Of a stretch of DNA of 64,000 nucleotides, positions 19,209 through 43,594 are shown one piece after another. This stretch comes from Candidatus Aminicenantia bacterium. GTDB taxonomy: Bacteria > Acidobacteriota > Aminicenantia > UBA2199. The position numbers and the translations under genes were made by a program. The notes beneath the pieces are model-generated. The model was not told the origin of the DNA and did not search any database. It saw only the letters and a program-made list of their open reading frames with translations. Each line of letters begins with the position of its first letter. The first letter of the stretch is position 1. The DNA lies in assembly GCA_965225955.1 (NCBI GenBank), contig CBDDBX010000009.1, positions 68,880 to 132,879 on the forward strand. Reading direction: 5' to 3'.

Positions 19209-19256
19209 ATATAGAGATGAGGGTAATTGCCGTGTTTTGTTAAAGGAGGAGTTAAA

Positions 19257-20498: not shown

Positions 20499-21608
20499 TT
20501 GAGCAGAAAAAAACGGATTGCAGTTGACTGCCGTATGGTTGAACATTCTGGTATAGGAAGGTATATACAGATGATCATGCCGTTTCTGGCAGAAAATTTT
20601 AAAGTAACTACAATGGGGTGCGCTGAATTGTTGTCCGGGTATGACTGGTTTGATAAAGACAGGCATATAGAACTGAAAAGTAACATATACAACCCTCTTG
20701 AACAGATTGAATTATCTTTTAAGATTCCTGCTACAGATCTGTTCTGGTCTCCACATTTTACTGTTCCGGTGTTTTCCATAAGAGCAAGAAAGCGGGTTGT
20801 AACAGTTCATGATATGTTTCATCTGAGATATATTGAAGACTTTGGTGCTGCTGCAACCTGGTATCTGAAGCTGCTTTTCAGTAAGGTTTCAAAATCAGAC
20901 AGAGTAATAACGGTGTCAGAGTTTTCCAAAAGAGAGATTGATGCTCTGACTGATACACCGCCAGATAAAATTGAAGTTATTCATAATGGCGTTGATACAG
21001 AAAAGTTTGGGAACTCTACAGTAGAACCGGAAATTCAGGGGCAGCAGATGCCGGAGCAATATCTTTTATATGTTGGAAATGTTAAGCCTCATAAGAATCT
21101 CAAAAGGCTTGTTAAGGCTTTCAGTGATATTTCCGATGAATTCCCTGATATGAAACTGGTTATAGCAGGAAAGATGGATGGCTTTATAAATGGTGATCCT
21201 GAACTCAGAAATATAATAGAAGAAAACTCTTCACTAAAAAGCAGAGTGATTTTTACAGGGTATGTAAAAGAAGAGATGCTGCCCGCTCTCTACAGAAAAA
21301 GCAGTGCTCTGGTTTTTCCTTCAATATATGAAGGGTTTGGGCTACCTCCACTCGAAGCAATGGCAGCAGAAGTACCGGTAATAGCGGCAGACTCAGCAAG
21401 TATCCCCGAGGTTTGTGGTGAAGGAGCTCTCTATTTTGACCCTGAAAGTGAAGGTGATATAGCAGAAAAGATCAGTAAGTTACTTAAAGATAAGAACCTT
21501 GCTTCTGAACTTGTTAAAACAGGGAGACTTGTAGTGAATGGATTCCGGTGGAGTGCTTCGGCATCAAAGCATGTTGAACTCTTTAAAGAATTACTTAAAG
21601 AGAGTTAA
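20499..21608 (+). CDS. Family 4 glycosyltransferase (GT-B, 'glycosyl transferase group 1')
   Basis: TTG start with an AGGAG RBS. 'EGFGLPPLEAMAAEVPVIA' motif. Confidence 0.75.
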   Translation: MSRKKRIAVDCRMVEHSGIGRYIQMIMPFLAENFKVTTMGCAELLSGYDWFDKDRHIELKSNIYNPLEQIELSFKIPATDLFWSPHFTVPVFSIRARKRVVTVHDMFHLRYIEDFGAAATWYLKLLFSKVSKSDRVITVSEFSKREIDALTDTPPDKIEVIHNGVDTEKFGNSTVEPEIQGQQMPEQYLLYVGNVKPHKNLKRLVKAFSDISDEFPDMKLVIAGKMDGFINGDPELRNIIEENSSLKSRVIFTGYVKEEMLPALYRKSSALVFPSIYEGFGLPPLEAMAAEVPVIAADSASIPEVCGEGALYFDPESEGDIAEKISKLLKDKNLASELVKTGRLVVNGFRWSASASKHVELFKELLKES

Positions 21609-21640
21609 CCGGAGTGATATGTTACACTCCGGTTTCTATT
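21608..21640. terminator. Bidirectional intrinsic terminator
   Basis: accggagtg-atatgtta-cactccggt hairpin followed by TTCTATT. It lies between convergent genes. Confidence 0.6.
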
Positions 21641-21648
21641 ATTATTGG

Positions 21649-22110
21649 TTATAGGCTATTTTTGAAATCTACAAGAGCTTTATAGTGCTCTCTCTCTTCA
21701 TTAATGAGGCTCTTAATCTGAAGTTCCTGAGACTCTGAAATAAAAGGTGAAATTTCCTGATAGAAGAGTATTGTGTCAAGTTCTCTTCTCATAGCAAATT
21801 TTACTGCATCAACAAGAGTTTCCACTTTGTCAGCTTCTTCCTGCTGAGCCTGCTCGTTGAACAGGTTATCTGCAAAGCTTCTAAGATACTCATCGTAAAA
21901 TTCATAGTTTTCTATATCTGCAGTAAAGTCTCCTGCAGTTGTTTCCAGTCTTTCAAATAGTGCTGCATGGTTGACCTCTTCGTCAGCAAGGTGAGTGAAA
22001 AACTCTTTGTGTTTCGGATCATCTACTCTTTCAGCCCATTTACGGTAGAATACTTCTCCCATTTTCTCTATTCTTACAGCCTGTTTTATTACCTGTTTAA
22101 ATCCCAGCAT
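21649..22110 (-). CDS. Rubrerythrin/ferritin-like diiron-carboxylate protein (no rubredoxin domain), copy 2
   Basis: Two E...ExxH motifs (ADEEVNH, EEREH) in a 4-helix-bundle-sized 153-aa protein. Confidence 0.55.
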   Translation of the reverse strand: MLGFKQVIKQAVRIEKMGEVFYRKWAERVDDPKHKEFFTHLADEEVNHAALFERLETTAGDFTADIENYEFYDEYLRSFADNLFNEQAQQEEADKVETLVDAVKFAMRRELDTILFYQEISPFISESQELQIKSLINEEREHYKALVDFKNSL

Positions 22111-22120
22111 AGTTTACCTC

Positions 22121-22570
22121 CTAATTATCAATAAGTACTTCGTCTTCATAAAGTTTTTCGAAGTGTAGTTTATGTCTTGCCTCTTCCTCTGCAAGTCTGT
22201 AGAAGATTTTTCTGGTGTCTTCGCTTGTGGAGTTTTCAGCAAGGTATTTATAGAGATTAAGTGCTCTCTCTTCTCTTTTCATTGCGATGAGAACGATATC
22301 CTGAAAAGTCATCTCATCCTTCTGCTCAGGTTCTTCAAGGTAATCGGACATCTTCAGAGTATCAAGATTGATTGAAGGCCGTTTCTCTTCGAATGAATCC
22401 CTCATGGATTCAAGAAGTTTTGCATGACCTCTCTCCATGGCTTCATACTCTTTAAGCATCTCCAGCTGTCCCTTGAATGCTGCATGAAACTGAAGCTCTT
22501 TATAGAATTCAGCAGCTTCGTGCTCGCGATCTATGGCAAAAGAGATAATTTTATCAAGTTTCTCATCCAT
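22121..22570 (-). CDS. Rubrerythrin/ferritin-like diiron-carboxylate protein, copy 1
   Basis: AGGAG RBS before MDEKLDKII. ExxH motifs (MERGHAK, EEEARHK). The ORF-track start at 22654 is probably too early. Confidence 0.55.
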   Translation of the reverse strand: MDEKLDKIISFAIDREHEAAEFYKELQFHAAFKGQLEMLKEYEAMERGHAKLLESMRDSFEEKRPSINLDTLKMSDYLEEPEQKDEMTFQDIVLIAMKREERALNLYKYLAENSTSEDTRKIFYRLAEEEARHKLHFEKLYEDEVLIDN

Positions 22571-22589
22571 ATCTATTTCTCCTGATTGA

Positions 22590-22970
22590 TCAGCTCTTCC
22601 AGAAACCGTGCAGGTTACAGTATGCCCGGGCATAAATGTCAGCCCCCTCAACATTGAATACTGCTACAGGTTCTTCTCCCGGATTCAGATACTTCAGATG
22701 GCTTGTAGAACCTTCAACCAGTTCTATCCATTCAATATAGTGTCCGTCAGTCATTGGATGAAGTACTGATCCTACTTTTACTGTAACTCTGTTACCTTCT
22801 CTTTCAATTACAGGAACATGCTTTTCTGTTGCAGCATCTGTAGTATTTTCTGTTAATTTAACCATATCCTGTCCGCAACATACCATATGACCTTTTGCAT
22901 CATGCAGTACGCTTGCTATAACTCCACATCTTTCGCACTTGTAAACATCCATCTTCTTGTATTCCATCAT
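22590..22970 (-). CDS. dfx: Desulfoferrodoxin (2Fe superoxide reductase)
   Basis: N-terminal desulforedoxin CxxC...CC (CERCG...CCG). C-terminal SOR-centre His/Cys ligands. 126 aa. Confidence 0.8.
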   Translation of the reverse strand: MMEYKKMDVYKCERCGVIASVLHDAKGHMVCCGQDMVKLTENTTDAATEKHVPVIEREGNRVTVKVGSVLHPMTDGHYIEWIELVEGSTSHLKYLNPGEEPVAVFNVEGADIYARAYCNLHGFWKS

Positions 22971-22999
22971 TTCCTCCTTAATGAAAAAATCGTATTAAT

Positions 23000-23986
23000 C
23001 TATTTGACAATACCTCTGAAGGTTTTGAATAGATAGCGTGTATAATACAGAACAAGGGGAACACCAATAGCAGCAATTATCAGCATTACAGTCAGAGTCA
23101 GCTGGGATGATGAGGTGTTGTAAATAGTCATGTCCAGTTCAGTGCCGTTATTTGCTCTCACAAGCACTGGGAAGAGCATTGAGCCTACACAGCCCCATAG
23201 TCCTGTAATCATAATTGACGACATAATAAATGAGCTCTTTGCTTTTCCTGATGAGGTGCGGAACCATGCTGTCAGGGAAATCACTATTGAAACCCACAGA
23301 AGAGGTCTTGAATATATACCTTCCGGTAACTGCAGGAAACCTGTGATAAGCATCAGAGCGAAAACAGGTAGAAATACCATTCTGCTTAGTTTTTTTACCT
23401 TTTCAGCCCGTTCTTTTATCGGACCGTCGGTTTTAGTAGTTGTGTAGATACTGCCCTGCATGATAAAGGCAAGTAAACTTACCAGTCCCATCAGAAGAGG
23501 GAAGGGACGCAGGAGAGTAAAGAAGTTTCCGGTAAAGTTCATAGACTGATCAAGTGGAACTCCTACAATTATATTGCCAAGGGCGACACCAAAAAGCAGG
23601 GATGGCAAAAAACTGCCTATAGCAAAGCCTTTAAACCAGAACTCTTTCCCTTCTTCCAGATAGTGAATGAATTCTATGGAAACAGCTCTTATGATAAGGG
23701 CAAACAGTACCAGCATTATTGCCAGATAGAAACCACTGAAAACCGTTGCATAAACGTGAGGGAAAGATGCAAACAGGGCACCACCACCGGTTAAAAGCCA
23801 TACCTCATTTCCGTCCCAGTAAGGGCCAATTGCTTTCATAAGTTTCAGTTTTTCTTTTTCATTCTTTGCAACAAAGGGATAAATTGTACCAACTCCCAAA
23901 TCAAATCCTCCGAGAATAGAGTAGCCAAGAAGCAGTACCCCAACAAGAATAAACCATACAACTCTAAGTATATCTAATAGTTCCAT
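23000..23986 (-). CDS. cydB: Cytochrome bd ubiquinol oxidase subunit II
   Basis: 328-aa polytopic protein with a 'WDGNEVWLL' motif. Directly downstream of cydA. Confidence 0.85.
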   Translation of the reverse strand: MELLDILRVVWFILVGVLLLGYSILGGFDLGVGTIYPFVAKNEKEKLKLMKAIGPYWDGNEVWLLTGGGALFASFPHVYATVFSGFYLAIMLVLFALIIRAVSIEFIHYLEEGKEFWFKGFAIGSFLPSLLFGVALGNIIVGVPLDQSMNFTGNFFTLLRPFPLLMGLVSLLAFIMQGSIYTTTKTDGPIKERAEKVKKLSRMVFLPVFALMLITGFLQLPEGIYSRPLLWVSIVISLTAWFRTSSGKAKSSFIMSSIMITGLWGCVGSMLFPVLVRANNGTELDMTIYNTSSSQLTLTVMLIIAAIGVPLVLYYTRYLFKTFRGIVK

Positions 23987-24054
23987 TTTTTTCTCCTTAA
24001 TAGTTTCCGCTTGTCAGGGATTCCGGTCCTTTTTTAACTATCTGTTTGAAGATT

Positions 24055-25323
24055 TTAAGGAAAATCACAAAAATCAATGAGTATACAATTACAAAAAAGT
24101 ATCAGAGTAGCAAGAATCTGCCATGCCGGTACAGTAGGGGATACAGCTGCTGAAGTTTTCATGATATTGTAAACAACCCAGGGTTGCCTTCCTACCTCTG
24201 CAGCCATCCAGCCAATTTCATTGGCAATGTATGGAAGAGGTATAGCCCATAATAGTAGTTTCAGGAACCATGGAGTTTCAGCAAATTTATCTTTTCTCAT
24301 CATGTATAAAGCAAGAAGCCCTATACCCATCATTGCAACTCCTGCAAAGATCATTATGTGATAAGAAACAAAGGAGAGTACCACCGGGGGTCTCTCATCT
24401 TTTGGAAAATCCTTTAAGCCGATTACTTTACCATCGGGATCAAAATGGATCATGTAGCTGAGCATTTTGGGAAGGCTGAACCAGACTGCAGTCTCTTCTT
24501 TCTCTTCGTCAGGCATACCAAGTACAGTATAGTCAACTCCTGTACCAGTTTCCCATACTCCTTCAAAGGCAGCCATCTTTGCAGGCTGGGTCAGAGCAAC
24601 CTGAACTGCATGGAAATGACCTGCTCCCAGCTGGATAAAGCAGGATATTGCAAATACCGGAAGAGCTATCTTCATAAGAAGTTTTGCAGAGTCAAGGGCT
24701 CTTTTTTTAAGAATATACCAGCCACCTATTGCTGCAGCTACAAGTGAACCGGTTATCCAGCCACCTATTATTACATGTATATATCTTGGTATTGTAGAGT
24801 GATTAATGGCGGCTTCAAAAAAGTCAGTAAGAACAGCTCTGCCTTCTACAATTTTATAGCCTGCAGGTGTTTGCATAAATGAGTTGGCTATAATAATCCA
24901 CAAACCTGACAGATGTGAGCCGAAACATACCATTATTGCTGCTACCAGATAAGCTTTTTTTGATACTTTATCTCTTCCAAAAATCAGAACTCCCAGGAAG
25001 ATCGATTCCATAAAGAATGCGAAAAGTCCTTCAGCTGCAAGAGGGGCTCCAAAAATATCCCCAACCATTCTTGAGTATTCAGACCAGTTTGTTCCGAATG
25101 CAAACTCAAGAGTTATACCTGTAGCAACTCCAACTACAAAGACAAGACCCAGTAACTTTATCATTACTGTTGATATCTTTTTGTACTCTTCTTTGCCTGT
25201 TTTATAGAACATCGCCTCAAGAAGAACTATAACCAGAGTCAACCCAAGTGTTGTGGGTGGGAAAATGTAGTGAAAACCCGCTGCAAAAGCGAATTGTATC
25301 CTTGCAAGTAAAACTGCTTCCAT
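24055..25323 (-). CDS. cydA: Cytochrome bd ubiquinol oxidase subunit I (short Q-loop type)
   Basis: 422 aa with a 'GRQPWVVY' motif and N-terminal heme-ligand region. Confidence 0.85.
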   Translation of the reverse strand: MEAVLLARIQFAFAAGFHYIFPPTTLGLTLVIVLLEAMFYKTGKEEYKKISTVMIKLLGLVFVVGVATGITLEFAFGTNWSEYSRMVGDIFGAPLAAEGLFAFFMESIFLGVLIFGRDKVSKKAYLVAAIMVCFGSHLSGLWIIIANSFMQTPAGYKIVEGRAVLTDFFEAAINHSTIPRYIHVIIGGWITGSLVAAAIGGWYILKKRALDSAKLLMKIALPVFAISCFIQLGAGHFHAVQVALTQPAKMAAFEGVWETGTGVDYTVLGMPDEEKEETAVWFSLPKMLSYMIHFDPDGKVIGLKDFPKDERPPVVLSFVSYHIMIFAGVAMMGIGLLALYMMRKDKFAETPWFLKLLLWAIPLPYIANEIGWMAAEVGRQPWVVYNIMKTSAAVSPTVPAWQILATLILFCNCILIDFCDFP

Positions 25324-25338
25324 TAATGCCTCCTGACT

Positions 25339-25722
25339 TTATTTATTACATTTATTGCATAAGCCTTTGAATATCATTCTCATACCTGTAACTGTAAATT
25401 CCCCTGTATCCAATTTTAACATAATATCTTTTTTATCTTTTGCATTCAATCGGATATCTTCAATAGAGTGGCATTTTACACAGACAGCATGTGAGTGAGG
25501 GGTAGGGTCCCAGTCGTATCTGGCGGGTCCATTCATGAAAGTCAGTTTGGATATATCTCCACTTTCACATAGTTGTTCAAGGTTACGATAAACTGTTGCA
25601 ATACTTATTTTTGGAAAAAGATCTCTCATCTGCATGTATAGTTCATCGGCAGTAGGATGTAATCTGCTGCTTCTTATTAACTTAAGTATTTCGTTTCTTT
25701 GTTTTGAGTTTCTTCTTTTCAT
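25339..25722 (-). CDS. Fur-family metalloregulator (PerR-like by context)
   Basis: 127 aa. HTH 'ISIATVYRNLEQL'. C-terminal CxxC...CxxC (CVKC...CNKC). Sits 15 bp upstream of cydA. Confidence 0.75.
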   Translation of the reverse strand: MKRRNSKQRNEILKLIRSSRLHPTADELYMQMRDLFPKISIATVYRNLEQLCESGDISKLTFMNGPARYDWDPTPHSHAVCVKCHSIEDIRLNAKDKKDIMLKLDTGEFTVTGMRMIFKGLCNKCNK

Positions 25723-25932
25723 TTTTCAATAATAGTAATTATTATCAATTTAAATATAAATAGATTAGAAACGTTTGTCAATAGTAAAAAATTTATATAA
25801 ATACTTTTTCATATTTTTTCTGCTACATGCTGAATAAAACGTTTTTATGTATATTCTAAATAGAGTGAGAGTGGGATCTGTAAGGGTGTTATGTGAAGTG
25901 GAAAATTTTTTCTTAAAAAAAAATTTTTTTTC

Positions 25933-25961
25933 TTGACAACACAAATTAGTTGGATTATCAT
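25933..25961 (+). promoter_or_regulatory. Sigma70-type promoter TTGACA-N17-TATCAT for ahpC
   Basis: Consensus -35 with 17-bp spacing. Preceded by a long A/T tract (UP-like). Confidence 0.45.
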
Positions 25962-25964
25962 GCT

Positions 25965-25983
25965 AATGATAACGATTATCATT
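25965..25983. promoter_or_regulatory. Fur/PerR-type box AATGATAAcgaTTATCATT
   Basis: Palindrome closely matching the GATAATGATAATCATTATC class. Overlaps the ahpC promoter/TSS and is divergent from the fur-cydAB-dfx operon. Confidence 0.55.
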
Positions 25984-26004
25984 AACAAAAAAATGGAGGA
26001 AAAG

Positions 26005-26565
26005 ATGTTAAAGATTAATGAAAAAGTAGAAAGTTGTACAGTTAAAGCGTTTCATGATGGTGAATTAAAAGAGATTAATTTAAAAGAGTATGACGGTAAA
26101 TGGAAAATCTTCTTCTTCTATCCTGCAGATTTTACTTTTGTATGCCCAACAGAACTGGGTGAAATGGCAGATTATTATGAAGAGTTTAAGAAAGAGGGAG
26201 CGGAAGTTTTCAGTGTAAGTACTGATACTGAATTTGTTCATCTGGCATGGCATAATGATTCTCCTACAATTAAAAAGATAAAATACCCAATGCTTGCAGA
26301 TCCCGCAGGTAAACTTAGCCGTTACTTTGGTGTGCATATCGAAGATGCCGGTGTAGCACTCAGAGGAACATTTGTAGTTGATCCTGATGGTGTTCTGAAA
26401 ATAGCAGAAATTCATGACCTGGGTATTGGAAGAAGTGCAAAAGAGCTTTTAAGAAAAGTAAGAGCTGCTAAGTTTGTACGTGAAAACGGAGAAGTTTGTC
26501 CTGCAAGCTGGGAACCTGGTGCAGATACACTGAAGCCTGGTGCTGATCTCGTAGGTAAAATATAG
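26005..26565 (+). CDS. ahpC: Typical 2-Cys peroxiredoxin (AhpC/Tsa family)
   Basis: GGAGG RBS before MLKINEK. Peroxidatic 'FTFVCPTE' and resolving 'EVCPA' motifs. Confidence 0.85.
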   Translation: MLKINEKVESCTVKAFHDGELKEINLKEYDGKWKIFFFYPADFTFVCPTELGEMADYYEEFKKEGAEVFSVSTDTEFVHLAWHNDSPTIKKIKYPMLADPAGKLSRYFGVHIEDAGVALRGTFVVDPDGVLKIAEIHDLGIGRSAKELLRKVRAAKFVRENGEVCPASWEPGADTLKPGADLVGKI

Positions 26566-26579
26566 GATAACCTTAATTT

Positions 26580-26603
26580 GCCGGCAGATTTCTTCTGCCG
26601 GCA
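26580..26603 (+). terminator. Hairpin after ahpC (weak terminator or attenuator)
   Basis: gccggcag-atttctt-ctgccggc. There is no T-tract on the + strand. Confidence 0.3.
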
Positions 26604-26676
26604 TGTGTAGTAAAAAAACGTGTCCTGAAGTATAATTATAGACTTAAATAGTTCAAACGAAATAGGAGAAGATGAT

Positions 26677-27183
26677 ATGATATCAAAAAAGATCGAGCAG
26701 TTACTGAATGATCAGATGAATTTCGAGATTTTTTCAGCTTATGTATACAGAGCAATGGGAGCATATTGTGATGTAAGAGATCTCTCCGGTTTTTCCAACT
26801 GGTTCAAAGTGCAGGCTCAGGAAGAAGAGATGCATGCAGAAAAGATTTATAATTTTGTTCTGGACCGTGGTGGAGAACCTGTATATAAAGGTTTTGGTGA
26901 CCCCGGACATGACTGGGAATCGGTTATTAAAGTATTTGAAGAAGCTCTCGGGCATGAGCAGGTTGTTACCGAAAGGTTTAACAATCTTATGACTGAAGCA
27001 GTTAAAGAAAATGATCACGCAACAAGATCTTTTCTGAACTGGTTTATTGACGAGCAGGTTGAAGAAGAAGCTACTGCTCAGTCAGTGGTAAATCAGCTGA
27101 AAATTTTAGGCGATAGTGGACACGGTATTCTGATGATGGACAGAGAAATGGCTGCCAGAAAGTTCGTGCCTGCTGCTGAGTAA
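26677..27183 (+). CDS. Bacterial non-heme ferritin
   Basis: 168 aa. Ferroxidase-centre residues 'EEEMHAEK' and 'EQVEEE'. Confidence 0.75.
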   Translation: MISKKIEQLLNDQMNFEIFSAYVYRAMGAYCDVRDLSGFSNWFKVQAQEEEMHAEKIYNFVLDRGGEPVYKGFGDPGHDWESVIKVFEEALGHEQVVTERFNNLMTEAVKENDHATRSFLNWFIDEQVEEEATAQSVVNQLKILGDSGHGILMMDREMAARKFVPAAE

Positions 27184-27209
27184 ATATATAAAAAAATCTG
27201 GAGTTGTAA

Positions 27210-28409
27210 ATGGGTAAACTAGACGCTGTAAAGATATCCGAGTCAGTATACTGGGTCGGAGCAATAGACTGGAATGTAAGAAATTTTCATGGATACAGAA
27301 CAGGAAGAGGAACTACATATAATGCTTTTCTGATTCTGGCTGATAAAATAACACTGATTGACACTGTAAAAAGCGGCTTTTTCAGTGAAATGAAGGCAAG
27401 AATTGCTTCACTTATCGATCCTGAAAAAATAGATTATATAGTATCAAACCATGCTGAACCTGATCATTCAGGATCAATGGTTGAGGCAATAGAGTGTTTT
27501 AAGCCTGAAAAGGTTTATGCTTCAAAAATGGGAGTGAAAGCTCTTAATCAGCACTACAATTTCCCAATTGATCTTGTAGCAGTTGCTGATAATGAAGTAC
27601 TGGACCTTGGTAATATGAATCTGACTTGTATTGAAACAAGAATGCTTCACTGGCCGGATAGTATGTTTACCTATCTTAATGAAGAGAAAGTACTCTTTAC
27701 TCAGGATGCATTTGGTATGCATCTGGCTTCAAGTGAGAGATTCGGGGATGAACTGCCATGGACTACACTTGAAAGATGGGCGAAGAGTTACTATGCAAAT
27801 ATTATAACTCTCTATTCACCTCATGTGAGACGATTACTGGAAAAGGTTGAACAATCCGGACTGGATTTCAGTATTGTTGCGCCTGACCATGGGCCTGTAT
27901 GGAGAAATACCGGCAACTTCACCAAACTTCTCGGACTATATAAAAAATGGTCTGACAGGGTTATGGATAAAAAAGTTGTTGTACTTTATGACACAATGTG
28001 GAAGGCTACAGAGACTATGTCACGATACTTTGAAGATGGTCTGAGAAAGGGTGGTGTTCAGGTTGTGTCAATGTCAATGACTCACAGTGACAGAAGTGAA
28101 GTTGCAGACGAACTGCTTGAAGCTGCAGGTGTGGTTGTAGGTTCTCCTACACTCAATAACAACCTTCTGCCTTCAATAGCGGATATTCTTGTCTATATGA
28201 AAGGACTCAAGTTCGGAACTCCGTACTCAGCTGTTTTTGGTTCCTATGGATGGAGTGGTGAATCAATTAAACAGGTTAAAGAGAAGCTTGAGGAGATGGG
28301 GACTGAAGTTGTAGGCGAAGTAAAGTGCCAGTATACTCCTGATGAGGAGACCCTCAGAAAGTGCTACGATATAGGCCTTGAACTGGCTGAGAAAATTAAT
28401 AAAAACTAA
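27210..28409 (+). CDS. Flavodiiron protein (rubredoxin:oxygen/NO oxidoreductase, FprA/ROO type)
   Basis: Metallo-beta-lactamase-like diiron motif 'HAEPDHSG' plus a C-terminal flavodoxin domain. 399 aa. Confidence 0.8.
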
Positions 28410-28429
28410 CTAAATTTGGGAGGCTAATT

Positions 28430-28591
28430 ATGAAAAAGTATGTATGTGATGTTTGTGGATATGTTTATGATGCTGAAACAGGGGATCCTGAAAATGGTGT
28501 AGAAGCAGGAACTGCTTTTGAAAATATTCCGGAAGGATGGCTCTGTCCTCTTTGTGGTGTTGGTGTTGATCAGTTTTCCGAGGATGAATAA
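28430..28591 (+). CDS. Rubredoxin (53 aa)
   Basis: Absent from the ORF track (under 60 aa). [14 protein letters not shown]...GWLCPLCGV carries both CxxCG knuckles. RBS GGGAGG upstream. Confidence 0.85.
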
Positions 28592-28770
28592 TGGCTGATA
28601 CCGAAAAAGTACTTTCTGCTATGAAGGATGCCGGGAAACCTGTAAGACCTGGTGAAATAGCTGAAGCTACAGGTATTGATAAAAAAGATCTTACAAAAAT
28701 TTTCAAATCATTAAAGGAAGAAGGAAAAATTATCTCACCTAAGAGATGTTTTTACTCTCTTCCGGAATAG
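28591..28770 (+). CDS. Small (59 aa) winged-helix-like protein, hypothetical
   Basis: Absent from the ORF track. Its ATG overlaps the rubredoxin stop (TAATG). Translation [59 protein letters not shown]. Confidence 0.45.
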   Translation: MADTEKVLSAMKDAGKPVRPGEIAEATGIDKKDLTKIFKSLKEEGKIISPKRCFYSLPE

Positions 28771-28791
28771 AAAAAAATCTTAAATATAATT

Positions 28792-28813
28792 CGGGAGGCA
28801 ATATCGCCTCCCG
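28792..28813. terminator. Bidirectional intrinsic terminator
   Basis: cgggaggc-aatatc-gcctcccg hairpin. A-run on the + side and U-run on the - side. Confidence 0.55.
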
Positions 28814-28819
28814 GATAGA

Positions 28820-29080
28820 TTAATCTACTTGCAGAGTGACTCTTTTAGCTTCACAGCCGCTGATGAGATTCAGTTTTCTGCAGAACTCATCAAGTTTTGC
28901 TTCCTCTCCCATCATTTCAAGGATTATAAGACCAGTCTGGGTACAGTTGTCCATAACTCCATCGTGGATACCAAGGCGGGTTTTAATCATACAGCCCCAG
29001 CCAGTAAGAATTTTCTGAACATTTACTGCACTCTCTTTTCTTTCGTCCATAAGAATGGCTACAATCTCTCTTCTTTTCAC
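28820..29080 (-). CDS. Small ACT/NikR-C-like regulatory protein (resembles TM1266-type 'iron-only hydrogenase system regulator')
   Basis: GTG start at 29080 with a GGAGGA RBS gives an 86-aa protein, MKRREIVAILMDERKESAVNVQKILTGWGCMIKTRLGIHDG.... The ORF-track start at 29176 is probably too early. Confidence 0.4.
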   Translation of the reverse strand: MKRREIVAILMDERKESAVNVQKILTGWGCMIKTRLGIHDGVMDNCTQTGLIILEMMGEEAKLDEFCRKLNLISGCEAKRVTLQVD

Positions 29081-29314
29081 TATGAATCCTCCATTAATTT
29101 TTGAAATAACTCCTTTTTTATAGTACAGATTCACTTTTTTTTCAAAGGCATTTGTTTGTGGATGAATCCGGTACACAGTCCGTTTATATTCAAAAAGTTG
29201 AATTTGTAGGGTATGAAGAGAAAAGGTAACTGTTTTGGTTAAAATTTGTGTACATAATTTTTCTTTCGTTTGACAAAATTATGACAAAACACGCATACTT
29301 ATAACAGGACAACC

Positions 29315-29866
29315 ATGAACTTGTTGAAAAAAATTTTCAGGAACAGGTATGTTACTTACGGGTTTATCTTTGGTGCGGTATTTGCTTTTGGAGTTGCTTA
29401 TGCAATAAGCTCTGCAGTAAAGCATACCGGTGATGATAAGTTCTGCGGAACCTGCCATATAATGGATTTTGCTATTAATGCATATCATCAGGACGTGCAT
29501 GGGGGAAACAATAAAAACGGATTCAAGGCAGAGTGTACTGACTGTCATCTTCCTCATGACACAATAGTCAATTTTATTCTTACAAAAGGGTATAAAGGGC
29601 TTCATGATCCTATCTCCCAGTTGATAAATGATGAAGAAAAACTGGATTGGGTAGGGATTCTGAAGGACCGGGAGAAGTTTACCTACTCTTCAGGTTGCCT
29701 GAAGTGCCACGATCTTGATGCAATAAAAATGGAAATTCCCAAAGCCTGGCAGGCTCACAGGGATTTTAAGCAGGGTAAGGTTAAAAGCTGTATTGAGTGC
29801 CATAAACATGTCGGTCATAAAGATATTCTGGTTCATATAAAAAAACGTTTTGGAGGTGACAGGTGA
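29315..29866 (+). CDS. NapC/NirT/NrfH-family membrane-anchored tetraheme cytochrome c (quinol dehydrogenase)
   Basis: N-terminal TM helix and 4 CxxCH motifs (CGTCH, CTDCH, CLKCH, CIECH). 183 aa. Confidence 0.8.
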   Translation: MNLLKKIFRNRYVTYGFIFGAVFAFGVAYAISSAVKHTGDDKFCGTCHIMDFAINAYHQDVHGGNNKNGFKAECTDCHLPHDTIVNFILTKGYKGLHDPISQLINDEEKLDWVGILKDREKFTYSSGCLKCHDLDAIKMEIPKAWQAHRDFKQGKVKSCIECHKHVGHKDILVHIKKRFGGDR

Positions 29867-31167
29867 GAAGACTGAAATTAATATTTATCACCGCTGCGGT
29901 GATATTCAGTTTCACAGCACTATGGGCTTCTGTTAAAGGAGTTAAAGAGCTGAAGGTTAACCGGGGGTTAACAAAAGAGGCGGCAAAATGTATAGAGTGC
30001 CACTCAACTAAACAGCCGGGAATAGTTGCTGACTGGAAACAGAGCAGACATGGTCATGTAGGAGTTTCCTGCATAGATTGTCATAAGGTGGAGAAGGGTT
30101 CAAAGATGGCATCCCAGTTTTGTGAGGGGGTCAAAGGAACAGATACTTATCTCTCCTCTCTTGTTACTCCTGAAACCTGTGCCAAGTGCCACGCTCTTGA
30201 AGTTAAGCAGTTTAAAGCCAGTGGCCATTACAGAGCCAGGAAACAGTATGTAAATAAGAAAAATCTTAACGATCTTATTGCAGTTCACGAAGGGCAGAAT
30301 ATGCCGGAATTTGCAACTGCAGCAGAAGAGACTGGTTGCATGCAGTGTCATGGTTCTATTATTAAACTTGACAAGAATAATCGCCCGATAAAATCCACCT
30401 GGCCTACAGCAGGTATTGGTACAATGTATCCAAATGGTGATATTGGTAATTGTACCGTATGTCATACAAGACATACTTTCAGTATAGAAGAAGCAAGAAA
30501 ACCTGATGCGTGCTCTTCATGCCATCTGGGACCTGATCATCCAAATATTGAGATATTTGAAAACAGTAAGCATGGTCATATTTATAAGACCCAGGGGCAT
30601 AAATGGAACTACAGTAGTGCACCGGATGCCTGGGAACCTGGAGATTACAGAGCTCCAACCTGTGCTGTTTGCCACATGAGTGGAATTGGTGATCTTAAAA
30701 CCACTCACAATATTTCTGAAAGATTAAAATGGAATCTCTGGGCTAAAGAATCAAAGATACGTAATTCCAAAGACCCAATGAGTCCTCTTACAGGCAATGG
30801 AATTGAAGGTAGAAAAAAGATGGAACGTGTGTGTAGTAATTGTCATTCAACTCAACACACTAAAGGATTCTTCTCAGCAGCAGATAAGCATATCCGTCTC
30901 TATAATGAGGGGTACTGGAAACCTGCCAAAAAGATGCATGATGAGCTTAAGGCAAAGAACCTCCTTAAGAAAAACCCATGGGAAGATGAGTTCCAGAAAA
31001 TCTTCTATCATCTGTGGCATCACCAGGGAAGAAGAATGCGTCAGGGAGCTGCAATGGGAGCGCCTGATTACGCTCACTGGCATGGAGTCTTTGAATGTCA
31101 GCAGGATATTGCTGAGTTGAGACTGATTCATGCAAAACGTTTAAAAACAGGTAAAATAGAGCATTAA
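29863..31167 (+). CDS. Periplasmic octaheme c-type cytochrome, HAO/Otr-like (reductive type; candidate nitrite/hydroxylamine/NO reductase)
   Basis: Signal peptide. 8 CxxCH motifs (CIECH, CIDCH, CAKCH, CMQCH, CTVCH, CSSCH, CAVCH, CSNCH). Overlapping start, consistent with translational coupling to the NrfH-like gene. Confidence 0.6.
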   Translation: MRRLKLIFITAAVIFSFTALWASVKGVKELKVNRGLTKEAAKCIECHSTKQPGIVADWKQSRHGHVGVSCIDCHKVEKGSKMASQFCEGVKGTDTYLSSLVTPETCAKCHALEVKQFKASGHYRARKQYVNKKNLNDLIAVHEGQNMPEFATAAEETGCMQCHGSIIKLDKNNRPIKSTWPTAGIGTMYPNGDIGNCTVCHTRHTFSIEEARKPDACSSCHLGPDHPNIEIFENSKHGHIYKTQGHKWNYSSAPDAWEPGDYRAPTCAVCHMSGIGDLKTTHNISERLKWNLWAKESKIRNSKDPMSPLTGNGIEGRKKMERVCSNCHSTQHTKGFFSAADKHIRLYNEGYWKPAKKMHDELKAKNLLKKNPWEDEFQKIFYHLWHHQGRRMRQGAAMGAPDYAHWHGVFECQQDIAELRLIHAKRLKTGKIEH

Positions 31168-31179
31168 CAGAATATAAAC

Positions 31180-31199
31180 AGGAGCCGGTAACGGCTCCT
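31180..31199 (+). terminator. Intrinsic terminator after the octaheme cytochrome gene
   Basis: aggagccg-gtaa-cggctcct hairpin. Confidence 0.45.
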
Positions 31200-31220
31200 G
31201 AATGTTTGGGTAAGGGGTGA

Positions 31221-31631
31221 TTCATAGTTGCTGACAAGGGAAAAACAGTTGTCTATGATGGATACTGCAATCTTTGTAGTGGCCTGATAAACATCATCTA
31301 TCAGAAAGCAGTAACAAAAGGTATTGTTTTCGTTCCTTCCGATTCAGAAGAGGGACTGGCTATATTGAGCCGACATAAAATAACTACTGTAAATATAGAA
31401 ATTATCTACATTTCTGACAATAAAGTTCTCAGCGGAGCTGAAGCTGCGCTGCGTATAGCTGAAGATACTGGTGGTATACTGAAATTTTTTGCTGTTTTCA
31501 GGATATTTCCTTTAAAACTCAGAGAGTATATATATCGCTTTATTGCAGAGAGAAGATACCGGATTGCCGGAAAAAGAGATTCCTGTTATATGGTAGTAGA
31601 TAAAAAAGAAAAGAGTAAAGACAAAACTTAA
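31221..31631 (+). CDS. DCC-family (DUF393) thiol-disulfide oxidoreductase; no canonical start codon is available
   Basis: The in-frame sequence after the TGA at 31218 reads FIVADKGKTVVYDGYCNLCSGLINIIYQK..., a conserved DCC N-terminus with a CxxC motif. The first ATG/GTG/TTG (31365) lies downstream of that motif. ATA at 31224 is the only start-like codon. Confidence 0.5.
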   Translation, partial: FIVADKGKTVVYDGYCNLCSGLINIIYQKAVTKGIVFVPSDSEEGLAILSRHKITTVNIEIIYISDNKVLSGAEAALRIAEDTGGILKFFAVFRIFPLKLREYIYRFIAERRYRIAGKRDSCYMVVDKKEKSKDKT

Positions 31632-31676
31632 TCTCCTTATGCTAAGATAGTGGCATATTTTGAAACAGGAGTAGTT

Positions 31677-32234
31677 ATGAAGAGGATTTGTCTTTTATTT
31701 ATACTGATAGTATGTCTGGGGAATGTCATAAAATCTGAAGTACCTGCCGGAAGATTTGTTCTGGAAGGAAGTGTTGGTTATTTTCAGCCAGCCAGTAATA
31801 CATTGAAAGATATCTACAGTAACAGAATTTTTCTTGAATTTGCAGCTGAGTATGTAATTGATTCGAAGTTATCTGTATGGGGGAGTGCTGCATTATATAG
31901 CGGAAATGGTGAATTAACTTTTACAAAAGATAAAACGGAAATAAGTATTGTTCCTCTTATTGCAGGAATAAAATATAAGTTGCCTTTCATAGTTAAAGGG
32001 ATGTATGTTGGTGCAGGAGCAGGTTTTTTCTCATTCAGGGAGAAGAATTTTCTGGGAACAGCTACATCTTTCAGTCCGGGAGTACAGGTCAAAGCTGGAG
32101 TAATGCTCCCCTTGTCAGGGGTTCTGGGACTGGATATTCAGGGACGATATGATTTTTGTACCACTGAGCCTGAAGATATAAAGGTGAAAGTTGGTGGCTT
32201 TAAAACATCAGCCGGACTATTTGTTCATCTATAG
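31677..32234 (+). CDS. Outer-membrane beta-barrel protein (OmpA-like/OmpW-like porin family)
   Basis: AGGAG RBS before MKRICLLFILIVCLG (signal peptide). Alternating amphipathic beta-strands. C-terminal '...GLFVHL' aromatic end. Confidence 0.55.
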   Translation: MKRICLLFILIVCLGNVIKSEVPAGRFVLEGSVGYFQPASNTLKDIYSNRIFLEFAAEYVIDSKLSVWGSAALYSGNGELTFTKDKTEISIVPLIAGIKYKLPFIVKGMYVGAGAGFFSFREKNFLGTATSFSPGVQVKAGVMLPLSGVLGLDIQGRYDFCTTEPEDIKVKVGGFKTSAGLFVHL

Positions 32235-32243
32235 GAGAGGATA

Positions 32244-33812
32244 ATGAAAAAGAAGCTAATATTAACCGGATTAATTATTCTTACTATGACCCTGGGTTCT
32301 GTTGTAATGGCTGACGATTACCTTAAAAAGGTAAAGCCTTTAAAGTGGATGGGGGAAAAATCTCCTGATACTTATGATCAGTATAAAAAAAGAAAAAGAA
32401 TCATGCCTTTTTATATAGAATCGGTTCCCATTGAAGCGAAAGGGAAGAAGGATTCTATGGGAAAGATAATTGTTATGGTTCAGAAAGAACTTTATGGGGA
32501 ACTTTCTGAATATATCAGCAGGTATCTGGGGCATATTGTTTCGGGGGGCTACAGCTCTGAATTGTATCTGGTACAGGGGGGAGTTGCTGAAGATCTTAAA
32601 AAATTCCTGATAGATTCCGGGAGCTCTCTCAGAGGATGCGTTATGATTGGTGAGTTTCCAATAGCGTGGTATGAAGTGGAAAATGATTATGATGAACATG
32701 GAAAGGCAGAATTTCCCTGTGATCTTTTTTTTATGGATCTGGATGGTAACTGGAAAGATAGCGATAATAACGGTCGCTATGATGAACACAGCAATGGTGC
32801 AGGTAATATGCTGCCTGAGATTTTTATTGCACGTATTGATACTACAGGAATGGCTGGAAATGAGGTTAGCTTACTGAAAAACTTCTTTGATAAAAACCAT
32901 AAATTCTGGAAAGGAGATGTAAGTTTCAGTAACAGAGGACTCACTTATACTGATGATGACTGGGTGGATTTTACTGATATAACCGGAGGCATTGTAAGTC
33001 TTTATCCTGATACAGCAGATAGGATAAAAGCTCCCTCTACTCACAGGGATGACTATTATAACAGGCGCCTTGATAATCCGGTGTATTACCTTACCCAGCT
33101 GGCATGCCATTCCGGTCCGGAAACTCACTATTTTGAGAGAGGAGGGACACTGGGATACGAAAGTGTCGTAAATTCATCTCCAGGTGCTCTTGTTTACAAT
33201 CTGTTCTGCTGTAGTGCTTTAAGATATAGTAATGGTAAATGTCTTGGAAAGGCATATCTATATAATGAAGGAAAAGGGCTTGCAGTGGTTGGAAGTACCA
33301 AAACAGGCAGTATGCTGAAGTTCAGATACTTTTATGAAAAACTTGGAAAAGGTGATTCCGTTGGAGCAGCCTTTCTGCACTGGTTCAGAAGTATAGGGGA
33401 CTATGATATATGGGATGTTTACTGGCATTACGGCATGACAATTCTTGGAGATCCTATGGTATTTCCTGATAGAAAGCCTGACATGTCATCCAGTGGAGTT
33501 AAAGCTCCTGCTGAATTTAAAGGCAGAAGAGTTCTTAACAGATCTCTGGCTATTAAAGAGTATATTAATATACTTGAGTGGAAGAAGCCTGTGGAAATGG
33601 ATGAATCAGAGATAGAAGGTTTTACAATCTGGTTTACTGTAAACAATGAAGAGAAGTTGATAAAACTTATCGACACAGAGGCTTCTGCTACAGGTTATAT
33701 GCATAGAAAAACAGAAGGTAATAATATTTATCACTACTATATAAAGACCAGAGATAAGCAAGGTAATGAGAGTATTTCAGCAGAGGTAACCCTGCAGGAA
33801 TATGTAGATTAG
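32244..33812 (+). CDS. Secreted putative clan-CD cysteine peptidase (C25 gingipain-like/C11-like) with a C-terminal Ig/FN3-like domain
   Basis: Signal peptide. Candidate His ('LTQLACHSG') and Cys ('VYNLFCCSAL') sites, each after a hydrophobic strand as in clan CD. C-terminal beta-rich domain. Confidence 0.35.
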   Translation: MKKKLILTGLIILTMTLGSVVMADDYLKKVKPLKWMGEKSPDTYDQYKKRKRIMPFYIESVPIEAKGKKDSMGKIIVMVQKELYGELSEYISRYLGHIVSGGYSSELYLVQGGVAEDLKKFLIDSGSSLRGCVMIGEFPIAWYEVENDYDEHGKAEFPCDLFFMDLDGNWKDSDNNGRYDEHSNGAGNMLPEIFIARIDTTGMAGNEVSLLKNFFDKNHKFWKGDVSFSNRGLTYTDDDWVDFTDITGGIVSLYPDTADRIKAPSTHRDDYYNRRLDNPVYYLTQLACHSGPETHYFERGGTLGYESVVNSSPGALVYNLFCCSALRYSNGKCLGKAYLYNEGKGLAVVGSTKTGSMLKFRYFYEKLGKGDSVGAAFLHWFRSIGDYDIWDVYWHYGMTILGDPMVFPDRKPDMSSSGVKAPAEFKGRRVLNRSLAIKEYINILEWKKPVEMDESEIEGFTIWFTVNNEEKLIKLIDTEASATGYMHRKTEGNNIYHYYIKTRDKQGNESISAEVTLQEYVD

Positions 33813-33878: not shown

Positions 33879-34214
33879 ATGGTACAAGTACTTACACTTT
33901 CTGAATCGATAATACTACTGACTATTCATAAGTTACAGCAAGAGGCTTATGGAGTAAAAATCAGACGATCAATAGAAGAAAATACAGGAATAGAATACTC
34001 TTACGGAGCTCTCTACAGCTCTCTGGAGCAGCTTACCAGGAAAGGGTATGCTGATAAAAAGGACGGAGATCCTACACCTGAGCGCGGAGGTCGCAGGAAA
34101 TCCTTTTATACAGTTACTTCTGATGGCATAAAAGCTCTTGAAGCAGCCAGAGAGCTCAACAAAACAATCTGGAAAGATTTCTCATCTGTCAGAGCTGAAG
34201 GAGAGGAAGCATGA
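33879..34214 (+). CDS. PadR-family transcriptional regulator (module 2)
   Basis: 111 aa with a 'YGVKIRRSIEENTG...GALYSSLEQLTRKGY' motif. Confidence 0.8.
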   Translation: MVQVLTLSESIILLTIHKLQQEAYGVKIRRSIEENTGIEYSYGALYSSLEQLTRKGYADKKDGDPTPERGGRRKSFYTVTSDGIKALEAARELNKTIWKDFSSVRAEGEEA

Positions 34215-43492: not shown

Positions 43493-43594
43493 ACCTGAAT
43501 ATTAGCATTAATAGAAATTATTATCATTATTTTCCGGTTTTAAAAAAGGGAAAGCGTAATTACTCTCCCTTATAAATTTTTGCTGATCTTTTAT

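Follow-up and report, generated by a model that had tools for sequence, protein, structure and literature searches.

Do the oxygen- and peroxide-defence genes that lie side by side in this locus answer to one Fur-family regulator, or does that regulator reach only some of them? A sequence-only reading of the window, by which we mean the whole 64-kb stretch of DNA analysed here, had described about 16 consecutive genes as a single defence island. Profile searches of the translated open reading frames against Pfam and NCBIfam upheld its family assignments, with every named family present in its place and the genes contiguous, although the block holds 15 genes and not 16, and the base composition, in which a foreign "island" signature was sought, shows no sign of foreign origin. 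The cluster is genuine, though as an oxygen/peroxide defence gene set of an anaerobe it is fairly ordinary. We think it fairly probable that a PerR-type repressor controls perR-cydAB-dfx-rbrL2-rbrL1 and ahpC through two divergent promoters, the rest of the block consisting of independent units.

A probable perR-cydAB operon

The regulator gene perR (25339..25722, minus strand; PF01475) encodes a 127-aa Fur-family protein of PerR type and is the first of six genes on that strand, lying exactly 15 nt upstream of cydA as the earlier reading had stated. It is followed by cydA and cydB, for cytochrome bd oxidase subunits I (23997..25323, minus; PF01654, E 2e-147) and II (23000..23986, minus; PF02322, E 5e-89; TIGR00203, 258 versus 117), and by dfx (22590..22970, minus), for a desulfoferrodoxin, or two-iron superoxide reductase (TIGR00320, 173.3 bits versus a cut-off of 146.9; PF06397 and PF01880). 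The last two genes encode rubredoxin-less diiron proteins of the Rubrerythrin family. rbrL2 (22121..22570, minus; 149 aa; PF02915, E 4e-10, and Ferritin_2) begins at 22570 behind a GGAG, which corrects the start given earlier, matches 1vjx among solved structures (E 1e-4) and has homologues in L093 and L012. rbrL1 (21649..22110, minus; 153 aa; PF02915, E 1e-8) encodes a four-helix-bundle protein whose translation shows E..ExxH..E..ExxH motifs; its best solved relative is the ferritin-like diiron-carboxylate protein TM1526 (1vjx, E 4e-11), and it shares 39% identity with the product of a gene from the cydAB island of L093.

The gaps from perR to rbrL1 measure 15, 10 (frameshift-corrected), 29, 19 and 10 nt, a Shine-Dalgarno site precedes each downstream gene, and a bidirectional hairpin (21607..21634; -17.5 kcal/mol, z -5.6) closes the series; it also stands 3' of the upstream glycosyltransferase gene and, like the other gene-end hairpins of the region, has no U tract. 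Given this tight spacing, the Shine-Dalgarno sites, a single hairpin at the end and a single strong promoter with its box, perR-cydAB-dfx-rbrL2-rbrL1 is likely a single minus-strand operon, as had been proposed. One of its genes is damaged as assembled: a homopolymer run in cydA, near 24100-24106, is one T too long, so that the called frame ends early at 24055 and the last ~30 residues of CydA are swapped. Removing one T restores a 441-aa protein with a C-terminus as in relatives, and up to the run CydA is 90% identical to that of L084; with the frameshift as assembled, the oxidase could be defective.

The regulator and its candidate operators

Two divergent sigma-70-like promoters lie in the 282 bp that separate perR from ahpC; each matches 11 of 12 positions, the two are the joint best in 11.5 kb, and a 7-1-7 inverted repeat covers the predicted start site of each. 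On the perR side (25730..25781, minus), TTGACA-17-TATATT at 25781-25753 is followed 5 nt on by the candidate box TGATAATAATTACTATTA at 25747-25730; on the ahpC side (25933..25983, plus), TTGACA-17-TATCAT at 25933-25961 is followed 3 nt on by the palindromic candidate box AATGATAACGATTATCATT, whose 19 nt are located at 25965-25983 with zero mismatches. The boxes depart from the Fur-type 7-1-7 consensus TGATAATNATTATCA at one or two positions (AATGATAACGATTATCATT at one); they belong to the B. subtilis Fur type and not to the PerR type. ahpC itself (26005..26565, plus) encodes a 2-Cys peroxiredoxin (TIGR03137, 273.6 versus 272; PF00578 and PF10417). Its start, previously placed at a TTG at 25933, is replaced by 26005 (MLKI, with GGAGG ahead), which puts AATGATAACGATTATCATT in the promoter and outside the coding sequence; the divergent ahpC thus does carry a Fur-type box on its promoter, over the predicted transcription start. 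Within the block, boxes were found at the perR and ahpC promoters only. A third, TGATAATAATTTCTATTA (43509..43526, minus), matches the perR operator at 17/18 positions and stands 16 nt ahead of an operon 12 kb away (43492-40041) whose lipoprotein, ResB-like and CcsA-like genes represent System II cytochrome c maturation, which suggests that the same repressor may also control that operon.

What does the protein on these boxes sense? PerR and Irr are distinguished by an Asp at the regulatory site, the position at which Fur, Zur, Mur and Nur carry Glu; in helix H4, Fur-type proteins read DNA with an Arg, which sets them apart from PerR with its canonical Asn (PMC8638967). H22, D70, H76, H78 and D89 of the perR product align with H37, D85, H91, H93 and D104 of B. 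subtilis PerR, as does the Cys4 site, and nine homologues without exception keep the five ligands and the four Cys. The best PDB match is B. subtilis PerR (2fe3, E 3e-21), and among NCBIfam models those for PerR score highest (91 and 88 bits versus 72 for Fur, a lead of 15-19 bits), with PerR and Fur scores alike under their curated cut-offs. By these features, and with the diagnostic Asp present, the regulator is PerR-like, which supports the earlier "Fur/PerR-like". In its recognition helix H4, R46 aligns with N61 of B. subtilis PerR, and this Fur-type residue is consistent with the Fur-type TGATAA boxes.

That combination makes an iron-responsive Fur compatible with the sequence, a protein that would bind Fur boxes when iron is plentiful and tie the cluster to iron status and not to peroxide. 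The ferritin gene adjoining the operon's partner ahpC, the third box on a haem-handling ccs operon and the iron- and haem-rich enzymes of the cluster would all fit such a sensor. We nonetheless regard it as unlikely: in place of the Glu of Fur, Zur, Mur and Nur the protein carries Asp89, its best matches are PerR profiles and a PerR structure, no iron-uptake gene was found near the boxes, and homologues 40-47% identical to it head rbr-dfx-ftn-fdp-rd operons, the classic PerR target set, in relatives.

For the PerR-type repressor that we favour, the B. subtilis protein offers an analogy. A reduced, metal-loaded dimer would sit on both operators and repress its own operon, perR-cydA-cydB-dfx-rbrL2-rbrL1, together with ahpC, until H2O2 oxidised a metal-ligand His and the repressor left the DNA. 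Derepression would then supply a quinol-driven bd oxidase, which would clear O2 at the membrane, along with a superoxide reductase, a peroxiredoxin and two putative peroxidases of the diiron, erythrin-like kind.

How far does the regulon extend?

The earlier reading went further, placing all of its roughly 16 genes in one integrated aerotolerance/NO-tolerance regulon under the Fur-family protein. The genes are indeed contiguous and functionally coherent. In the first unit past ahpC, ftn (26677..27183, plus; PF00210, E 2e-40) encodes a non-haem ferritin and fdp (27210..28409, plus; ODP and Flavodoxin_1) a class-A flavodiiron protein of ROO/FprA type, with an HAEPDH diiron motif in its translation and 372 bits, under the cut-off, against the flavorubredoxin model; its product probably reduces O2 and/or NO. 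Rubredoxin follows (rd, 28430..28591, plus; NF045768, 96.9 versus 90; PF00301), and then a 59-aa conserved winged-helix-like protein (wHTH, 28591..28770, plus), whose only Pfam match is a weak one to MarR_2. A 59%-identical orthologue occupies the same place after rd in L001 and L002, a C-terminal EGKIISPKRCFYSLP is invariant among the orthologues, and the family counts 489 representatives; an AlphaFold2 model has a three-helix core (pLDDT 76), with Zalpha and MarR winged helices as its best folds (TM 0.76, E 0.12). The four genes would form a conserved O2/NO-reducing, iron-sequestering module, and in related genomes ftn-fdp-rd lies inside PerR-headed operons.

Transcription could run on from ahpC into ftn, but a hairpin 3' of ahpC (26579..26603, plus; -22 kcal/mol, z -5.4), a probable terminator or attenuator, stands between the two genes. 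Because it equals the region's other gene-end hairpins in strength and is of their type, ftn-fdp-rd-wHTH is probably a separate transcription unit with its own promoter, for which a perfect -10 TATAAT at 26631-26636 lies upstream of ftn with no box, even allowing two mismatches. PerR could then act on the module only through transcription that runs past the hairpin of ahpC.

The remaining genes lie alongside but form independently bounded units, neighbours by function at most. Beyond a bidirectional hairpin between convergent genes (28792..28813; -21.5 kcal/mol, z -5.5), the ACT-like gene (28820..29080) runs on the opposite, minus strand from a GTG at 29080 after GGAGG, a corrected start; its 86-aa product belongs to the CPF_0552 family (TM1266-like, ACT-like fold; NF052672, 95.4 versus 85; PF21699, weak). 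The haoC-like nrfH (29315..29866, plus; PF03264, E 7e-29), preceded by a promoter-like TTGACA-18-CATACT at 29270-29299, encodes an NrfH/NapC-type membrane tetrahaem quinol dehydrogenase with an N-terminal helix and four CxxCH motifs. Its stop overlaps the start of hao (29863..31167, plus; PF13447), for an octahaem HAO-family cytochrome of epsilon-Hao type with eight CxxCH motifs, whose first PDB match is IhOCC (4qo5, E 6e-43), followed by HAOs, and which shares 59-74% identity with a large family that takes in a Halarcobacter protein. The pair, closed by a hairpin at 31179..31200 (-20.8 kcal/mol), would act as a quinol to nitrite/hydroxylamine reductase. Last comes a DCC1-like thiol-disulfide oxidoreductase (31221..31631, plus). 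The family and the full domain with its CxxC are present in the stop-to-stop frame (PF04134 profile 1-113), but the 88-aa frame listed earlier has no CxxC (profile 52-113), and no ATG, GTG or TTG stands ahead of that motif in frame within 31221-31631; an ATA at 31224 is preceded by the SD-like AAGGGGTG.

For these units, too, the upstream regions of the ACT-like gene, nrfH and DCC have no box even at two mismatches. The third box would tie PerR to the maturation of NrfH and Hao, both c-type cytochromes, but the pair itself gives no sign of belonging to a PerR regulon: nrfH comes together with hao throughout L086-L090, and the neighbours are unrelated genes in all five relatives' loci (three distinct neighbourhoods). 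With boxes confined to two promoters, a strong hairpin at the bounds of each unit, one gene on the opposite strand and another without a canonical start codon, a single regulon over the whole block is quite improbable, and the claim gives way to a probable smaller regulon of the perR operon and ahpC.

Relatives and known systems

How unusual is a regulator of this kind in front of a bd oxidase? None of 80 PerR-homologue loci and none of the 3 nearest cydAB loci has perR directly upstream of cydAB, so the arrangement is rare, in keeping with the earlier reading, although an 82%-identical relative, L084, keeps the perR-cydA-cydB order, the perR promoter and the box. The presence of a bd oxidase within a ROS-defence cluster is not unusual; among the nearest CydA relatives it is the rule, with FDP, Dfx, Rbr and Rd genes around cydAB in all three nearest loci (3/3). 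At these islands (L091-L093) neither such a box nor an adjoining Fur-family gene is present, and PerR control of cydAB would thus be lineage-specific at best. At the perR homologues of L001, L005, L033 and L036, the top-ranking 7-1-7 match of the surrounding 16-20 kb sits 20-50 nt upstream of the homologue.

Taken with the recurrence of the clustering in relatives, the enrichment of boxes in intergenic DNA (4 hits, or three sites, against an expectation of 0.12 in the 64-kb window, a count of 4 being reached in 0 of 300 simulations, for a degenerate consensus partly derived from these same sites) suggests that the defence genes cluster by more than chance. A functional neighbourhood under several other regulators, its palindromes being AT-rich promoter features with no operator role, could draw on the ease with which such palindromes arise in intergenic DNA of 34% GC, on the box-free islands and on C. 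difficile, where fdp and revRbr are under OseR and sigma-B and not PerR (PMC11980386), but it is very unlikely given that enrichment, the two distant sites identical at 17/18 positions, the box and promoter kept in L084 and the equivalent boxes in four other lineages.

Experiments elsewhere offer precedents for the proposed control: PerR of C. difficile regulates its own operon, rbr-perR-sor-CD0828, and in C. acetobutylicum PerR controls O2 detoxification (PMC11980386). With B. subtilis PerR the regulator described here has the ligands and the Cys4 site in common, whereas its helix H4 carries Arg46 instead of Asn.

Oxygen- and peroxide-defence genes of the cluster

A Fur-family gene, perR (25339-25722, minus strand, 127 aa; PF01475, E 4e-25), lies 15 nt upstream of cydA and heads a co-directional series on the minus strand: cydA (to 25323; PF01654, E 2e-147), cydB (23000-23986; PF02322, E 5e-89), the desulfoferrodoxin gene dfx (22590-22970; TIGR00320, 173.3 against a cut-off of 146.9) and two genes that Pfam places in the Rubrerythrin family without a rubredoxin domain, rbrL2 (22121-22570) and rbrL1 (21649-22110). 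Divergently, across a 282-bp spacer, ahpC opens a plus-strand arm that continues with a ferritin gene (ftn), a class-A flavodiiron gene (fdp), a rubredoxin gene (rd) and a 59-aa ORF. Convergent with this ORF, on the minus strand, is an 86-aa CPF_0552/TM1266-like (ACT-like) gene, and beyond it the plus strand carries a tetrahaem NapC/NrfH-type gene whose stop overlaps the start of an octahaem HAO-family gene (29863-31167), followed by a DCC1-like frame (31221-31631). The sequence-only reading had named these families, and the ORF listing together with Pfam and NCBIfam profile searches bore out every one. Some of its start positions shifted: those of rbrL2 and the ACT-like gene were corrected to 22570 and to a GTG at 29080, and that of ahpC was moved to 26005. 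The 19-nt palindrome it had reported, AATGATAACGATTATCATT, is present at 25965-25983 and, given the ahpC start at 26005, therefore falls in the promoter.

Several of these proteins can be placed more precisely. The desulfoferrodoxin joins an N-terminal desulforedoxin-like FeS4 domain to a neelaredoxin ferrous domain, and TIGR00319 and TIGR00332 also exceed their cut-offs. RbrL1 and RbrL2 have only the PF02915 diiron bundle, with neither RUBY_RBDX nor a C-terminal rubredoxin domain, and their nearest structure is TM1526, a ferritin-like diiron-carboxylate protein; by domain content they classify as erythrin-like proteins, not true rubrerythrins. AhpC scores just over its equivalog cut-off (TIGR03137, 273.6 against 272), and the annotated ORFs of the 64-kb window include no AhpF-like reductase gene. 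The 399-aa flavodiiron protein has the PF19583 and PF00258 domains and the HAEPDH motif of the ROO/FprA class, with the separate rubredoxin gene 20 nt downstream. The 59-aa protein (28591-28770) has EGKIISPKRCFYSLP as an invariant motif at its C-terminus and belongs to a widespread, unannotated family of roughly 57-60-aa members (489 representatives at E<=1e-3); its gene directly follows rubredoxin both here and in a distant relative's locus, L001 (13788-13964). Its Foldseek matches are winged helices with E-values of at least 0.12, which are not significant, and the N-terminal extensions of some family members, considered as possible fusions, look like mis-called starts.

Two genes show lesions or irregularities. 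CydA carries the GWMAAEVGRQPW motif and the genes for subunits I and II are adjacent, but at the 3' end of cydA (minus strand) one additional T in a T6 run, at 24100-24106, alters the last ~30 residues. Removal of one T yields a 441-aa protein with the C-terminus found in L084, a relative's locus, and in all close relatives. Either an error (of assembly or in the homopolymer) or a recent mutation that inactivates the gene would account for the frameshift, and cydA would be intact only if the assembly has one T too many. In the DCC1-like frame, the complete domain (profile positions 1-113, including the N-terminal CxxC, CNLC) is present only when 31221-31631 is read from stop to stop; no ATG, GTG or TTG precedes the CxxC motif (31221-31365), and an ATA at 31224 follows a Shine-Dalgarno-like AAGGGGTG, which suggests a mutated or non-canonical start.

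We rejected the possibility that the block is a foreign island, because its GC content (0.37-0.40) matches that across the window (0.35-0.42) and the flip in GC skew tracks the coding strand. An Rfam search of 21000-32500 gave no match, hence no riboswitch or known sRNA there. Just upstream of the cluster lie tandem paralogous O-methyltransferase genes (18189-19208 and 19227-20276; 339 and 349 aa, clearly similar).

A PerR-type regulator and its predicted operators

Is the regulator a PerR or a Fur? Its closest solved structure is Bacillus subtilis PerR (2fe3, E 3e-21, aligned over the full length), and it has the N-terminal winged helix and C-terminal dimerisation domain of the Fur-family fold. 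H22, D70, H76, H78 and D89 align with PerR H37, D85, H91, H93 and D104, and the two CxxC pairs of the zinc site, C81/C84 and C122/C125, align with PerR C96/C99 and C136/C139; the regulatory-site ligands and all four cysteines are invariant across nine homologues. The position of PerR N61 in helix H4 is occupied by Arg46. According to a passage in PMC8638967 (citing Parent 2013 and Caux-Thang 2015), PerR and Irr have Asp in the regulatory site where Fur and Zur have Glu, and helix H4 has Asn in PerR and Arg in Fur. The protein thus appears to combine PerR-type sensing chemistry (Asp89) with a Fur-type reading head (Arg46), and the TGATAA-type boxes at its putative operators, the one at ahpC a single mismatch from the Fur-type consensus TGATAATNATTATCA, are consistent with such a head.

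The main alternative, that the gene encodes an iron-sensing Fur, draws on the same arginine and the same Fur-type boxes, but it must contend with Asp89 in place of Glu, with the target set, and with the profile scores, in which the PerR models of NCBIfam rank highest (91.4 and 87.5 bits, Fur reaching 72) although all PerR and Fur scores fall under the curated cut-offs (200 and 180 for PerR). A PerR-based metagenome scan returned a single irrelevant match at 27% identity.

The two best sigma-70-like promoters in 21000-32500, each matching at 11 of 12 positions, face away from each other in the perR-ahpC spacer: TTGACA-17-TATCAT at 25933-25961 (plus strand) for ahpC and TTGACA-17-TATATT at 25781-25753 (minus strand) for perR. 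A 7-1-7 inverted repeat (25965-25983 and 25730-25747) comes 3-5 nt after each promoter, so that the boxes cover the predicted start sites. A degenerate consensus, in part post hoc, gave four hits (three sites) in the 8.3 kb of intergenic DNA in the window against 0.12 expected, and none of 300 Markov simulations reached four. L084, which is 82% identical, keeps the perR-cydA-cydB order together with the promoter and box of perR. Four further relatives' loci (L001, L005, L033 and L036) were compared over 16-20 kb each; in all four the consensus finds its best match 20-50 nt upstream of the perR homologue. The comparison is thus evidence for the motif as this clade's operator. That the boxes have no operator role is contradicted by both their enrichment and their conservation.

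The third site (43509-43526, minus strand) agrees with the perR operator at 17 of 18 positions and lies 16 nt upstream of an operon of lipoprotein, ResB-like and CcsA-like genes (ccs; 43492-40041). An HD-GYP/HAMP gene (38179-39990) follows that operon on the same strand. Another box-like site, with one mismatch (33719), falls within coding DNA and precedes the first of two padR genes by 160 nt; these belong to paralogous pairs of PadR-like and MacB/FtsX-type permease genes (33879-36769 and 44578-47483), and a third, stand-alone MacB-like permease gene occupies 13920-16523.

The limits of the transcription units can be sketched from spacing and hairpins. The genes that follow perR are set off by gaps of 15, 10 (corrected for the frameshift), 29, 19 and 10 nt, a Shine-Dalgarno site precedes each of them, and a hairpin of -17.5 kcal/mol closes the unit. 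perR itself has no Shine-Dalgarno sequence (25723-25747), the operator occupying most of its predicted leader of ~24 nt; the other genes of the cluster all carry GGAG or GGAGG at 5-9 nt from the start. Gene-end hairpins at 21607-21634, 26579-26603, 28792-28813 and 31179-31200 (-17.5 to -22 kcal/mol) have no U tract; standard scans for intrinsic terminators under-call terminators in this organism. Because the strong hairpin after ahpC (-22 kcal/mol) is of this same kind, ahpC is probably monocistronic. The ftn-fdp-rd genes and the 59-aa, winged-helix-like (wHTH) ORF are probably transcribed from their own promoter; upstream of ftn there is a perfect TATAAT (26631-26636) and no box.

The perR-cydAB arrangement and the reach of the predicted regulon

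The sequence-only reading had called the placement of a bd oxidase directly behind perR unusual, and the genomic context of PerR homologues agrees. Among the best 80 loci of a scan of the genome collection (35-45% identity), none exceeds 45% identity to the window PerR and none has cydAB within 10 kb. Six of the 80, from five lineages, have perR-(rbr)-dfx-ftn-fdp, usually with rd. These operons (L001/L002, L005, L033, L036 and L070) belong to the same regulator clade (39-43% identity) and share dfx, ftn, fdp and rd with the window; four of them (L001, L005, L033 and L036) share the 7-1-7 box, and L001/L002 also the orthologue of the 59-aa gene, after rd. They differ in forming one co-directional operon without cydAB, whereas the window has the module in two divergent arms, with cydAB inserted after perR and ahpC added.

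Approached from the oxidase, the picture is complementary. The nearest CydA relatives (L091-L093, 66-68% identity) all lie among ROS-defence genes, likewise with FDP, rubredoxin, Dfx, rubrerythrin and ferritin genes, but in orders unlike that of the window: cydAB-rd-fdp-dfx-rbr in L091 and L092, and ftn-rbrL-rd-cydAB-hemerythrin-fdp-rbrL-dfx-rbr in L093, which also holds homologues of rbrL1 and rbrL2. Neither a 7-1-7 box nor an adjacent Fur-family gene occurs in these three islands. In L091, four tandem copies of AAGAAGCGTTAGAAAG (~7900-7970) stand immediately upstream of cydA, pointing to a different regulator there. A bd oxidase within a ROS island is thus a recurrent arrangement, and the joining of perR upstream of cydAB is specific to this lineage; no description of a PerR-cydAB operon was found in the open-access literature.

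How far does the regulon extend? All the genes had been read as one integrated aerotolerance and NO-tolerance regulon, a view that the outer genes, with neither boxes nor conserved synteny, do not support: no box was found upstream of ftn, the ACT-like gene, nrfH or the DCC frame. The ferritin-FDP-rubredoxin-wHTH genes are functionally allied and PerR-linked in relatives; here PerR would reach them by read-through at most. The nrfH-hao pair, the ACT-like gene and the DCC frame are, as far as their sequences indicate, neighbours without sign of co-regulation. An imperfect palindrome abutting the nrfH -35 element (AAAATTTGTGTACATAATTTTT, 29241-29262) was considered and set aside, not being conserved upstream of nrfH in L086 or L088, two relatives' loci.

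With eight CxxCH motifs and PF13447 in the octahaem protein, and four CxxCH motifs and PF03264 in the tetrahaem one, the nrfH-hao pair has the make-up of an epsilon-Hao (reductive HAO) and its NrfH partner; the best solved relative of the octahaem protein is IhOCC (4qo5), with HAOs next. Its family is large and highly conserved (59-74% identity in Cloacimonadota, Delongbacteria, Desulfobulbus and Halarcobacter), and several public records label HAO-type members 'beta-ketoacyl-ACP synthase', apparently a propagated misannotation. In L086-L090 hao always follows an NrfH-type gene while the remaining neighbours are unrelated, so its placement beside an oxidative-stress cluster is not conserved. 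Characterised epsilon-HAOs have no cross-link Tyr and reduce nitrite and hydroxylamine (PMC8042395; PMC10949509). From these reports and from 59% identity to a Campylobacterota member, we infer that the window Hao, whose host is not one of the Campylobacterota, would likewise be without the haem-cross-linking Tyr of oxidative HAOs; single-sequence and profile alignments to PDB structures end short of the Hao C-terminus, the region in question, or are unreliable in it.

In the best-supported picture, a PerR-type repressor would occupy the two divergent operators and probably the third at the ccs operon; peroxide would inactivate it, and the derepressed cell would make bd oxidase, superoxide reductase, the two erythrin-like diiron proteins and AhpC. 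We infer the peroxide sensing, the repression and what the enzymes do from the known behaviour of their families and from experimental precedent in Clostridioides difficile and Clostridium acetobutylicum (PMC11980386). A more far-reaching joint reading is that, with peroxide sensor and bd oxidase on one autoregulated transcript and the same operator at the System II ccs operon, H2O2 rather than the usual O2 or redox sensors might induce membrane O2 scavenging together with cytochrome c maturation, through a sensor that is a natural PerR-Asp/Fur-Arg hybrid with Fur-type boxes. We advance this tentatively, as less likely than not to hold. If it is true, the hybrid sensor would parallel in nature the N61R switch engineered into B. 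subtilis PerR.

PerR-headed, autoregulated ROS operons of anaerobes are already known from experiment, and the gene families are standard. What is new is modest: the perR-cydAB fusion, the Asp/Arg hybrid regulator and, for the cytochrome c maturation genes, a putative operator. The fusion and the hybrid are small variations on a well-studied theme, which could aid the annotation of PerR versus Fur in metagenome-assembled genomes (MAGs), and the cluster leaves current understanding unchallenged. It does offer a small and testable scheme for the way in which an uncultured anaerobe of a seldom-sampled lineage may deal with O2 and peroxide, in which one sensor acts through two operators on about seven target genes and on a third, distant target, and a caution that adjacent stress-related genes need not form one regulon.

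Comparison with known systems

The window shares an octahaem gene placed directly after that of a tetrahaem quinol dehydrogenase with the known epsilon-Hao/NrfH-type systems (Haase et al. 2017) and IhOCC from Ignicoccus hospitalis. Bd oxidase, as an O2 scavenger, and ROO-type FDPs count among the recognised means by which anaerobes defend themselves against O2 (PMC11451228). Desulfovibrio rd-roo likewise pairs a class-A FDP with a separately encoded rubredoxin; in the window fdp comes before rd, with ferritin ahead of both and the small wHTH gene after them.

The closest experimental parallel to the perR operon is rbr-perR-sor-CD0828 of C. difficile, which PerR autoregulates from a sigma-A-type promoter with an operator and which is induced by peroxide and air (PMC11980386). 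As in that operon and the broader PerR regulon of C. acetobutylicum, perR here sits within an anaerobe ROS operon with rubrerythrin-family and desulfoferrodoxin genes. Unlike in those clostridia, it is the first gene and is followed by cydAB, genes that they lack; the erythrin-like proteins have no rubredoxin domain, and ahpC is divergent with its own operator. Nor is the organism a clostridium; its flanking genes have their nearest homologues in Cloacimonadota, Delongbacteria and MAGs.

With B. subtilis PerR the regulator shares the fold, the Cys4 zinc site, the regulatory site and a 7-1-7 operator overlapping the promoter. Their target sets overlap, by prediction in the window, in ahpC and a haem-related operon, the B. 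subtilis precedent for the latter being the hemA operon. The window protein differs in having Arg46 for Asn61, TGATAA (Fur-type) boxes for TTATAA, a length of 127 aa without the N-terminal extension of its B. subtilis counterpart, and a target set of the anaerobe type.
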